A stretch of 64,000 nt of DNA from Eledone cirrhosa (taxonomy: Eukaryota). Numbering within the stretch: position 1 is the first letter of the stretch; each line of letters opens with the position of its first letter. The position numbers were made by a program, and so were the translations under genes. Under the pieces are notes generated by a model. That model saw only the letters and a list, made by a program, of their open reading frames with translations. It had not been told where the DNA came from and searched no databases. Shown in pieces: positions 48,971-56,518 of the stretch. The stretch is taken from the NCBI GenBank assembly GCA_964016885.1, contig OZ024740.1, positions 125,736,001 through 125,800,000 on the forward strand, read 5' to 3'.

Positions 48971-48971
<1 letters not shown>

Positions 48972-51900
48972 GTCCTGATGAATTCTAACAAGAATGAAAC
49001 GCGTAGATTACTTCCCTTGCTTTTATCGAGAATCTAATTGTAATACGTGACGTATTCTATTCTATAGCGATTATGTCTTCAAAATGTTTATTATAAACAT
49101 ACAGAATATTTTCGAATATTCTATGTCTATATTCACATATATATCGCTATTTCAGAGCATTTATTCCAATTTCTAATTTCTGCCGGACCGGCAACCGCTC
49201 TTTCAAACCAGTTCCTGTACACAGCTAAGTATTCTATAAGTCTCTAGCTGTGTCATTCTCGATAAAAGCACTGGATATGTAGTCCTGATGAATTCTAACA
49301 AGAATGAAACGCGTAGATTACTTCCCTTGCTTTTATCGAGAATCTAATTGTAATACGTGACGTATTCTATTCTATAGCGATTAGGTCTTCAAAATGTTTA
49401 TTATAAACATACAGAATATTTTCGAATATTCTATGTCTATATTCACATATATATCGCTATTTCAGAGCATTTATTCCAATTTCTAATTTCTGCCGGACCG
49501 GCAACCGCTCTTTCAAACCAGTTCCTGTACACAGCTAAGTATTCTATAAGTCTCTAGCTGTGTCATTCTCGATAAAAGCACTGGATATGTAGTCCTGATG
49601 AATTCTAACAAGAATTAAACGCGTAGATTACTTCCCTTGCTTTTATCGAGAATCTAATTGTAATACGTGACGTATTCTATTCTATAGCGATTAGGTCTTC
49701 AAAATGTTTATTATAAACATACAGAATATTTTCGAATATTCTATGTCTATATTCACATATATATCGCTATTTCAGAGCATTTATTCCAATTTCTAATTTC
49801 TGCCGGACCGGCAACCGCTCTTTCAAACCAGTTCCTGTACACAGCTAAGTATTCTATAAGTCTCTAGCTGTGTCATTCTCGATAAAAGCACTGGATATGT
49901 AGTCCTGATGAATTCTAACAAGAATGAAACGCGTAGATTACTTCCCTTGCTTTTATCGAGAATCTAATTGTAATACGTGACGTATTCTATTCTATAGCGA
50001 TTAGGTCTTCAAAATGTTTATTATAAACATACAGAATATTTTCGAATATTCTATGTCTATATTCACATATATATCGCTATTTCAGAGCATTTATTCCAAT
50101 TTCTAATTTCTGCCGGACCGGCAACCGCTCTTTCAAACCAGTTCCTGTACACAGCTAAGTATTCTATAAGTCTCTAGCTGTGTCATTCTCGATAAAAGCA
50201 CTGGATATGTAGTCCTGATGAATTCTAACAAGAATGAAACGCGTAGATTACTTCCCTTGCTTTTATCGAGAATCTAATTGTAATACGTGACGTATTCTAT
50301 TCTATAGCGATTAGGTCTTCAAAATGTTTATTATAAACATACAGAATATTTTCGAATATTCTATGTCTATATTCACATATATATCGCTATTTCAGAGCAT
50401 TTATTCCAATTTCTAATTTCTGCCGGACCGGCAACCGCTCTTTCAAACCAGTTCCTGTACACAGCTAAGTATTCTATAAGTCTCTAGCTGTGTCATTCTC
50501 GATAAAAGCACTGGATATGTAGTCCTGATGAATTCTAACAAGAATGAAACGCGTAGATTACTTCCCTTGCTTTTATCGAGAATCTAATTGTAATACGTGA
50601 CGTATTCTATTCTATAGCGATTAGGTCTTCAAAATGTTTATTATAAACATACAGAATATTTTCGAATATTCTATGTCTATATTCACATATATATCGCTAT
50701 TTCAGAGCATTTATTCCAATTTCTAATTTCTGCCGGACCGGCAACCGCTCTTTCAAACCAGTTCCTGTACACAGCTAAGTATTCTATAAGTCTCTAGCTG
50801 TGTCATTCTCGATAAAAGCACTGGATATGTAGTCCTGATGAATTCTAACAAGAATGAAACGCGTAGATTACTTCCCTTGCTTTTATCGAGAATCTAATTG
50901 TAATACGTGACGTATTCTATTCTATAGCGATTAGGTCTTCAAAATGTTTATTATAAACATACAGAATATTTTCGAATATTCTATGTCTATATTCACATAT
51001 ATATCGCTATTTCAGAGCATTTATTCCAATTTCTAATTTCTGCCGGACCGTAACCGCTCTTTCAAACCAGTTCCTGTACACAGCTAAGTATTCTATAAGT
51101 CTCTAGCTGTGTCATTCTCGATAAAAGCACTGGATATGTAGTCCTGATGAATTCTAACAAGAATTAAACGCGTAGATTACTTCCCTTGCTTTTATCGAGA
51201 ATCTAATTGTAATACGTGACGTATTCTATTCTATAGCGATTAGGTCTTCAAAATGTTTATTATAAACATACAGAATATTTTCGAATATTCTATGTCTATA
51301 TTCACATATATATCGCTATTTCAGAGCATTTATTCCAATTTCTAATTTCTGCCGGACCGGCAACCGCTCTTTCAAACCAGTTCCTGTACACAGCTAAGTA
51401 TTCTATAAGTCTCTAGCTGTGTCATTCTCGATAAAAGCACTGGATATGTAGTCCTGATGAATTCTAACAAGAATGAAACGCGTAGATTACTTCCCTTGCT
51501 TTTATCGAGAATCTAATTGTAATACGTGACGTATTCTATTCTATAGCGATTAGGTCTTCAAAATGTTTATTATAAACATACAGAATATTTTCGAATATTC
51601 TATGTCTATATTCACATATATATCGCTATTTCAGAGCATTTATTCCAATTTCTAATTTCTGCCGGACCGGCAACCGCTCTTTCAAACCAGTTCCTGTACA
51701 CAGCTAAGTATTCTATAAGTCTCTAGCTGTGTCATTCTCGATAAAAGCACTGGATATGTAGTCCTGATGAATTCTAACAAGAATGAAACGCGTAGATTAC
51801 TTCCCTTGCTTTTATCGAGAATCTAATTGTAATACGTGACGTATTCTATTCTATAGCGATTAGGTCTTCAAAATGTTTATTATAAACATACAGAATATTT

Positions 51901-52234
51901 TCGAATATTCTATGTCTATATTCACATATATATCGCTATTTCAGAGCATTTATTCCAATTTCTAATTTCTGCCGGACCGGCAACCGCTCTTTCAAACCAG
52001 TTCCTGTACACAGCTAAGTATTCTATAAGTCTCTAGCTGTGTCATTCTCGATAAAAGCACTGGATATGTAGTCCTGATGAATTCTAACAAGAATGAAACG
52101 CGTAGATTACTTCCCTTGCTTTTATCGAGAATCTAATTGTAATACGTGACGTATTCTATTCTATAGCGATTAGGTCTTCAAAATGTTTATTATAAACATA
52201 CAGAATATTTTCGAATATTCTATGTCTATATTCA
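48971..52234 (+). repeat. Tandem array of 10.5 x 310-bp units, one HHR per unit (non-LTR retrozyme-like)
   Basis: Units start at 48971, 49281, 49591, 49901, 50211, 50521, 50831, 51140, 51450, 51760 and 52070, and are almost identical. Confidence 0.95.
49255..49343 (+). ncRNA. Type I HHR of the array (representative of 11 copies)
   Basis: attctcgataaaagca ctggatat gtagtc CTGATGA attct aaca agaat GAAA cgcg TA gattac ttccct tgcttttatcgagaat. Predicted cut after 49315. Confidence 0.9.
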
Positions 52235-52467
52235 TATATGTATATATATATGTATATATATATATGTATATATATATATATGTATATATGTAGGAGGTGA
52301 GTTTTATTGTAGTACAATAAAGCAATGCAGATATCGGATAAGAAGCACTCTACAGTTTGTGGGACTGGAGTATGCATAATATAAGATCAAAAGATGGTTA
52401 AAGGAGTTCCATATATTTTATTATGCGCATTTCAAGTGTTTTTTAGCCTTCATATCATGTTCTCCTG

Positions 52468-52527
52468 TTTTATCTGATGAAATATTATTGCTTGATGATG
52501 TTTGTTTTTGAAATGCGCATAATAAAA
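52468..52527 (+). ncRNA. HHR in 5' pLTR, with a deletion in stem II
   Basis: ttttat CTGATGA aatattatt gctt gatgatgtttgttttt GAAA tgcgca TA ataaaa. Confidence 0.65.
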
Positions 52528-52733
52528 TATATGGAACTCCTTTAACCATCTTTTGATCTTATATTATGCATACTCCAGTCCCACAAACTGTAGAGTGCTT
52601 CTTATCCGATATCTGCATTGCTTTATTGTACTACAATAAAACTCACCTCCTACATTAACTTGCTCCTTAACGGTTGAGCGCTTACTCTCATATTGGATAC
52701 CTTTTGATGGTCCTTCACCTCTTCTTCTACAAC

Positions 52734-56144: not shown

Positions 56145-56211
56145 TTTTATCCGATGAAAAAACAAATATTATTGCTTGATGATGTTTGTTTTTGAAATGC
56201 GCATAATAAAA
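56145..56211 (+). ncRNA. HHR in 3' pLTR, core variant CCGATGA
   Basis: 16-bp stem II aaaaacaaatattatt/gatgatgtttgttttt; palindromic ATGCGCAT; U4C. Confidence 0.65.
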
Positions 56212-56284
56212 TATATGGATCTCCTTTAACCATCTTTTGATCTTATATTATATGTATATATATATATATGTACATATATATATG

Positions 56285-56309
<25 letters not shown>

Positions 56310-56315
<6 letters not shown>

Positions 56316-56516
56316 AGAACAAAAGATGGTTAAAAGAGTTCCATGTATTTTATTATGCACATTTCAAAAACAAATATCATCATGCAATAATATTTGTGTT
56401 TTCATCAGATAAAACAGGAAGACATGATATGAAGGTTAAAAAACACTTGTGGATAGTGCAGTTTTAAATCAACATATCTGCATTGCTTTATTGTACTACA
56501 ATAAAACTCACCTCCT

Positions 56517-56518
<2 letters not shown>
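56310..56518 (-). mobile_element. Separate inverted pLTR copy with an intact HHR core (56348-56414)
   Basis: Minus: ttttat CTGATGA aaacacaaatattatt gcat gatgatatttgttttt GAAA tgtgca TA ataaaa. Confidence 0.75.

Follow-up and report, generated by a model that had tools for sequence, protein, structure and literature searches.

Within a 64,000-nucleotide stretch of the Eledone cirrhosa genome (assembly GCA_964016885.1, contig OZ024740.1, forward-strand positions 125,736,001 to 125,800,000; hereafter the window), a tandem array of repeats with predicted hammerhead ribozyme motifs is followed closely by an intact open reading frame (ORF) for a reverse transcriptase (RT)/endonuclease of the Penelope-like element (PLE) type. 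The question raised by this locus is whether the two form one system, as an initial annotation of the DNA had considered possible, or have simply come to lie side by side. The array belongs to a repeat family termed R1, and the PLE family of the intact element beside it is called X. It is likely that the array and the X element are independent insertions in one (TA)n tract, and that the array is one among well over 1,000 insertions of a retrozyme, 310 nt in unit length, that a TA-targeting PLE RT/endonuclease copies in trans, probably from an RNA circle.

The R1 array is delineated by Tandem Repeats Finder (TRF) as a 310-bp unit in 10.6 copies with 99% matches (48965-52243). The unit is non-coding and low in GC (34%). 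A motif scan identifies 11 type I hammerhead motifs, all on the plus strand, with the core intact in nine; units 3 and 8 carry TAAA where GAAA is expected. Helix I is 6 bp and helix II 5 bp long, helix III is short and palindromic, and such type I motifs are reported to be active only as dimers (PMC4209133). Rfam at its gathering threshold returned no matches within the window and the hammerhead calls therefore depend on the motif scan, whilst Pfam assigned no families to four window proteins. The scan places the predicted cut in the last hammerhead at the same position as the initial annotation (Table 1), which had also correctly described the array hammerheads and the ORF as lying on the same strand with only a short (AT)n run between them, measured here at ~53 bp. 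The family as a whole consists of non-coding tandem units within the 170-400 nt range of retrozymes, each with a hammerhead, and is found as dispersed multimers without features of long terminal repeat (LTR) elements. On the basis of this anatomy, the array is classed as a non-LTR retrozyme.

The evidence for how R1 moves comes from the family and not from the single locus. Exact matches to a 25-mer from the unit number 16,541, and junction motifs detect 1,242 short ends and, on the forward strand, 754 long ends, counts that are lower bounds (the window's own end escapes the pattern), the reverse long-end count being inflated by a variable gap. A total of 101 insertions were mapped in 99 stretches, nearly all on contig C1, which were selected by an internal motif (18), a short end (69), a long end (10) or a DNA search (one), together with the window. 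They comprise 82 two-armed insertions with both ends visible, 4 two-armed insertions with one end cut off, 14 single-armed insertions and 1 that is cut. Every fully seen two-armed insertion (82/82) has one short and one long 3' end, ~35 nt apart. Counted after the predicted cut, the exact match ends at 117-139 in the short class, mostly at 130 or 139, and at 151-172 in the long class, mostly at 165. Among the 18 loci chosen by internal motif, 14 are two-armed, each with the short-long pair. Between 98 and 100% of the sampled ends, which were chosen by TA-containing patterns, run into a TA tract, and loci chosen without end bias also end in TA tracts, except L064.

The same two-ended form is displayed by the PLE families X, whose ends at 128-137 and 216-222 are ~88 nt apart, and Z, with ends at 199 and 257, ~58 nt apart. 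Insertions of PLEs are described as bearing, besides an inverted 5' arm, a tail of 30-40 bp at one of their ends (PMC8557442). In vitro, two adjacent internal RT start sites bound the tail and both strands of the target are cut and extended; the tail has been called unique to PLEs (PMC11167929). The R1 insertions carry this two-ended PLE footprint, and its family-wide occurrence is strong evidence for PLE-driven, probably rolling-circle, retroposition. The array in the window is a single arm, a minority outcome within R1; its 5' end is at unit position 275, and on the 3' side it stops at the short end of the family, at position 130 of the unit counted from the predicted cut. A route without PLEs, in which twin priming by long interspersed nuclear elements (LINEs) or satellite spread at the DNA level with inversions produced the arrays, is very improbable. 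Twin priming by LINEs yields non-overlapping arms. LINE-type RT frames are present in the same loci, and LINEs or PLEs have been named as candidate movers (PMC7229834), but R1 ends bear no poly(A), the two fixed internal ends lie on overlapping arms, and the PLE families X and Z share the form.

Two further observations concern the arrays themselves. At L084:2550-2823, the arms of an array are held apart by ~270 bp of unrelated GC-rich sequence, possibly a captured RNA. Two loci that are nearly identical and lie 44 kb from each other (G000:C2:338412103-338415273 and 338455960-338459130) hold arrays of different length, 1.7 versus 4.7 units, which shows that the number of units can change once an insertion has taken place, or in the assembly.

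Insertions in the window are stacked with short TA spacers between them, which favours independent insertion of array and element. X is found within 1.4 kb outward of 9 of the 178 R1 array ends and of 6 of the 87 control ends, drawn from small family sets (Z 1/23, R2 1/13, X 4/51; Fisher p=0.58). As X is no commoner beside array ends than beside control ends, the adjacency is ordinary. Within the same distance the other neighbours of R1 array ends include Z (16), R3 (12) and V (7), and within 100 bp X is one of the 10 neighbours found. Scaling 1/178 to ~2,700 ends suggests, with a wide error, that shared targeting would give roughly 15 close R1-X pairs genome-wide. A DNA search spanning the junction of array and X gave no matches, which speaks neither for nor against such pairs. 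Of 25 intact X copies, 24 have no array nearby. Most likely, then, the array and the X element inserted independently of one another into a single (TA)n tract. The shared target, which had been put forward as possibly sufficient in itself, is the best account of the adjacency, and this particular X copy is not required for retrozyme copying.

It is scarcely credible that the locus is a two-component unit in which the last hammerhead of the array sets the 5' end of the RT message by read-through, or in which array and element move together. The two do lie on the same strand in close succession. Moreover, both pseudo-long terminal repeat (pLTR) hammerheads of the window X copy are damaged, which leaves the last one in the array as the nearest intact hammerhead upstream. 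However, the leader from this cut to the ORF would be 632 nt long and would contain a perfect hairpin of 148 bp as well as 18 ATGs upstream of the ORF, and the array and X each keep their own insertion ends in (TA)n. Most intact X copies manage without an array and in L208, which has one, the facing arm opposes the ORF strand. Read-through is therefore implausible, and the two-component locus proposed initially fails, also for the lack of enrichment at 1.4 kb.

The arms of R1 insertions contain information on the template. Fixed variants are common to both arms in 40 of 42 loci, compared to 10.8% between loci. In a larger set, limited to arms in which two or more whole units are identical, the arms agreed in 35 of 37 loci; 11 haplotypes were each confined to one locus, their locus-private variants being fixed across all units of both arms (11 of the 37 loci). 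The short-end arm is the longer one in 39 of the 82 insertions; either arm may thus be the longer, and neither arose as a fold-back copy of its partner. Visible 5' ends (186) are distributed uniformly over the unit (chi-square p=0.30), with four near the cut. Arms reach more than 20 units despite the hammerhead in each. Of 864 units, 853 have an intact hammerhead core, and only the free position 7 of the core shows heritable changes, a conservation that supports self-cleavage and circular RNA indirectly. A monomer circle copied from two primers accounts most simply for these arm data. Four of six sequencing runs were also viewed as contigs, and three gave a single 340-nt contig, in which circle and tandem DNA are indistinguishable.

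The element neighbouring the array is a single insertion (52288-56251). The intact RT/endonuclease ORF on the plus strand is as initially annotated, but the extent then given, to 56518, takes in two X insertions, the second (56311-56519) being 88-92% identical over its inverted arm. The ORF encodes, in order, an RT (RWT, DKT, FDI and YRDD motifs), a CxCx5C linker and, at the C-terminus, a GIY-YIG domain with CxxC..E and CxH. In the 800-aa form the residues are DKT 123, YRDD 357, CNCRIKNKC 659, the GIY-like YFGST 693, CNLCLNE 759 and CLH 787. Neither a CX2-5CxxC finger nor CCHH is present in the X ORF, and the GIY-YIG core holds one cysteine. A type I hammerhead motif was seen in 119 X-family pLTR matches from redundant loci. 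Both pLTR hammerheads of the window copy deviate from the usual family form, the 5' one lacking 7 nt of stem II relative to the common form. Of 30 sampled matches to the X end motif, 27 pass into (TA)n or (CA)(TA)n and the other three are internal pLTRs.

Hydra-clade PLEs are described as having a C-terminal GIY-YIG domain without CCHH, DKT, CxCx5C, hammerheads and (TA)n targets, whereas Naiad elements have an N-terminal endonuclease and DKA and are described as lacking canonical hammerheads (PMC8557442). By domain order, motifs, pLTR hammerhead and (TA)n target, X is assigned to the Hydra clade. The initial label of Naiad was mistaken: in X the RT precedes the endonuclease, the motif is DKT and not DKA, CCHH is missing and the pLTR has a hammerhead. 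No Naiad ORF occurs among 411 frames from the sampled loci, a result that says nothing beyond those loci; true Naiads are listed for two Octopus species. The X ORF has 15 database relatives at 30-38% identity, and the three inspected share its motifs but read RWK where X has RWT. Compared by eye, Hydra-1_Obim resembles X motif by motif, but the supplement of PMC8557442 contains none of four strings diagnostic for X, and X therefore differs from the Hydra-1_Obim family.

The X end motif has 10,703 exact matches. The 150 RT-region matches listed are all 99-100% identical, with 52 keeping the full 821-codon frame by hand count, and between the window ORF and those of 20 further intact copies identity is 98.6-99.6%. 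Judged by these figures, X is an abundant and young family. Full-length X copies also occur in direct tandem at ~3.9 kb (G000:C2:134084504/134088400; C3:26526080/26529998; C4:169501676/169505612), and look as if the element had been copied more than once around.

The mobilisation of retrozymes by PLEs through circles has been proposed previously (PMC7229834; 10.64898/2026.07.22.740005), and the R1 data allow a more specific scheme. The arrays would be transcribed, their hammerhead dimers would cut the RNA to monomers and the monomers would circularise, in keeping with known retrozyme biology. A PLE protein, probably acting as a dimer, would cut both strands of the (TA)n tract, which is the target observed. 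The two DNA ends would then prime at fixed sites of one RNA, unit positions 130-139 and 165-172, to give the paired ends that are seen. Each RT would roll for anything from less than one to more than 20 units and stop at a random point, after which the two complementary DNAs would be joined into the head-to-head structure that is found in the genome. The suggestion in the initial annotation that the neighbouring RT mobilises the 310-nt RNA in trans thus holds for a PLE RT at the family level, through the footprint at ~100 loci, but nothing ties the activity to this neighbour copy, nor firmly to X.

That X is specifically the trans driver, with close pairs slightly above chance as the same enzyme cuts the same tracts, is less likely than not. 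X is young and abundant, as would match the very young arrays, and three close pairs are known in which the array end faces X's long end (window, L208 and L286); in L208, as in the window, it is the array's short end that does so. L060 has an array arm whose junction with the tail of family V contains no TA, and the end of V looks similar to that of X by eye. Against this, X and the retrozyme share no end homology, the tail is ~88 nt in X and ~35 nt in the retrozyme, X is not enriched near arrays at 1.4 kb, and further TA-targeting PLE families exist, among them Z, which is young, and several of Neptune type. X is disfavoured if the end spacing is set by the enzyme, although nothing follows if the RNA sets it. 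As annotated initially, the array unit is not homologous to the element's pLTR, which has a different hammerhead: alignment scores fall inside the shuffle range and nhmmer E values are at least 2.6. An alignment of the R1 unit to the antisense of the middle of the X ORF (score 48, above 200/200 and 100/100 shuffles) is gapped, AT-rich, far from the ends and unseen by the family hidden Markov model (HMM), and is treated as probably compositional.

A still more tentative proposal is that an intact, recently active Hydra-clade PLE protein drives a non-homologous 310-nt circular RNA in trans, its dimer binding a conserved RNA structure, using two fixed sites on one circle for priming from the pair of DNA ends at a single (TA)n break, and rolling in both arms. 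R2, an older relative of the R1 unit (~75% homologous, ~310-325 nt, 7,661 motif matches), has the same two ends. Its short end is directly preceded by a hairpin in which changes are paired and the tetraloop varies (UUCG versus GCAA). This hairpin is a candidate RT recognition element. A conserved hairpin region spans unit positions 60-235.

A number of points weigh against the overall account of independent insertion and PLE-driven copying from circles. One of the 25 intact X copies (L208) has an array ~44 bp away, compared to a rough expectation of 0.03-0.2. The small control sets are still compatible with a two- to three-fold enrichment, and four of the six control matches are X beside X, some of which are perhaps one complex insertion. 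The family HMM detects no significant unit homology among 139 PLE 3' regions, a redundant set made up mostly of X and Z, and no unit match at the PLE ends of 30 GIY-YIG loci, the two sets covering part of the genome's PLE families; its matches in those loci are a strong one in L319, which is a neighbouring insertion past the TA tract, and weak ones in L323 and L342. By comparison, 24 of 57 Xenopus retrozyme families are reported to be homologous to a PLE pLTR (10.64898/2026.07.22.740005), and no such homology was found for R1. Finally, mosaic arrays with mixed unit haplotypes occur in L168, L186 and L311, and sporadic variants recur in L164, L173 and window units 3 and 8.

The mosaics and recurring variants mean that not every insertion derives from a monomer circle, and that R1 also involves multimers, switches of template or subsequent change at the DNA level. 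They favour the view that the template of the PLE enzyme is a long linear multimer transcribed from an existing array, with DNA-level homogenisation later, as does the report that unprocessed RNA was the main PLE substrate in vitro and that hammerhead cleavage was unnecessary (PMC11167929). As a general explanation this is nevertheless unlikely, given the locus-private variants fixed in every unit of both arms, the arms of more than 20 units in which each unit bears a hammerhead, and the limitation of heritable core variation to one position. The circular template therefore remains the preferred one. In L186 the second haplotype fills two whole units per arm, which are the innermost ones in one arm and the outermost ones in the opposite arm.

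The features of the locus and of related families are collected in Table 1.

Table 1. Coordinates of the array, the X element and other repeat families (window positions unless a locus is named).
Feature	Position	Strand	Remarks
Retrozyme array R1	48970-52234	+	10.5 units of 310 nt; unit-sequence mapping
Last type I hammerhead motif of R1 array	52069-52110	+	predicted cut after 52104
Long (TA)n/(TG) microsatellite region	43132-48969		contains two further small two-armed insertions, 46918-47420 and 47435-47610
(TA)n spacer separating array from X insertion	52235-52287		~53 bp (TA)n/(TG) between 52234 and 52288
Inverted 5'-truncated arm of X	52288-52435	-	148 bp, ends at X's long end
5' pLTR and tail of X	52437-52654	+	hammerhead motif ~52468-52527
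Intact ORF of X	52707-55136	+	809 aa from 52707, 800 aa from 52734
3' untranslated region of X	55137-56115	+	internal duplication of ~220 bp
3' pLTR of X	56116-56251	+	ends at X's short end; hammerhead core CCGAUGA
(TA)n spacer after X element	56252-56310		~60 bp
Separate truncated two-armed X insertion	56311-56519		inverted arm to short end, direct 46-bp arm to long end
R2 loci	47435-47610; L064:9330-10000; L227
R3, two-armed hammerhead repeat	39763-40499 and 46918-47420		palindromic helix III, AACA or AATA loop like the array's
Y, second Hydra-like PLE family	11108-14600	-	split ORF, long-stem hammerhead motif
Z, young PLE family, two-armed insertions	17291-20020 and 14580-14910

Among these families, the Y protein is ~40% identical to that of X and its ends lie ~105 nt apart. 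Z has a C-terminal GIY-YIG domain, a 58-nt tail, 1,714 tail-motif matches and tandem copies at ~4.1 kb. Chimeras (L060, L274/L297 and L242) have differing partners and are ambiguous, as they can be nested insertions with deletion. At L060:2909-5264 the long-end array arm runs directly, without TA, into a PLE-type V insertion at its tail; this V insertion is missing a long end of its own, and the junction may represent a template switch or a nested insertion with deletion. At L297:4208-9657 a Z element and an R2 arm meet head to head, with a short end on either outer side, and in L242 an R2 unit is fused directly to R3. Elsewhere in the window, 32026-32758 and 59580-59993 hold a 175-180-bp tandem of a short interspersed nuclear element-like repeat and a LINE-type RT fragment.

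The mover of animal retrozymes has so far been proposed from co-occurrence and pLTR likeness (PMC7229834; 10.64898/2026.07.22.740005). In R1 the PLE tail is borne by a non-coding ribozyme repeat, strictly with a long and a short end per two-armed insertion, and the arms go back to a single template. With two predicted start sites in the 310-nt RNA and several intact candidate enzymes, two-ended rolling-circle PLE priming can be tested at the bench. If X does drive the 310-nt circle, then X and the RNA would constitute a complete two-part retroposition system that could be rebuilt in vitro. The negative adjacency test and the correction from Naiad to Hydra are also new here.

Among known systems, the closest to R1 in its unit are the metazoan non-LTR retrozymes, which likewise have non-coding tandem units of ~300 nt with a type I hammerhead in each and form dispersed multimers (PMC7229834; 10.64898/2026.07.22.740005). 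R1 differs from them in that most of its insertions are twin arms in head-to-head orientation whose fixed ends occur in pairs within (TA)n; the word 'inverted' is absent from the main text of PMC7229834. No account of two-armed, tail-bearing retrozyme insertions was found in the literature covered, which extends to main-text passages of the two retrozyme papers. The non-autonomous Chlamys elements such as MRC1 are also PLE passengers and multicopy in head-to-tail arrangement, but resemble their autonomous partners at the 3' end (PMC8557442), a likeness that was not found for R1.

With respect to the enzyme, X shares with the Hydra clade the C-terminal GIY-YIG domain, DKT, CxCx5C, CxxC and CxH around E/N, the lack of CCHH, the pLTR hammerhead and (TA)n, although it has RWT and not RWK and a unit of 3.7-3.9 kb compared to generally <3 kb (PMC8557442). 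Its tail of ~88 nt is also longer than the 30-40 bp quoted for PLEs in general (PMC8557442). Naiad is similar to X in (TA)n targeting, the inverted 5' arm and the tail, but the N-terminal endonuclease, DKA, CxC, CCHH and the lack of canonical hammerheads are Naiad features of which none is seen in the X ORF (PMC8557442). The Anolis Poseidon element, as studied in vitro, acts in cis on its own RNA and has a start site that is the same for both strands, whereas R1 insertions have strictly one end of each kind and a non-coding template (PMC11167929). Nevertheless, Poseidon likewise has two internal start sites, extends both strands at an AT-rich target and is predicted to form a dimer (PMC11167929).

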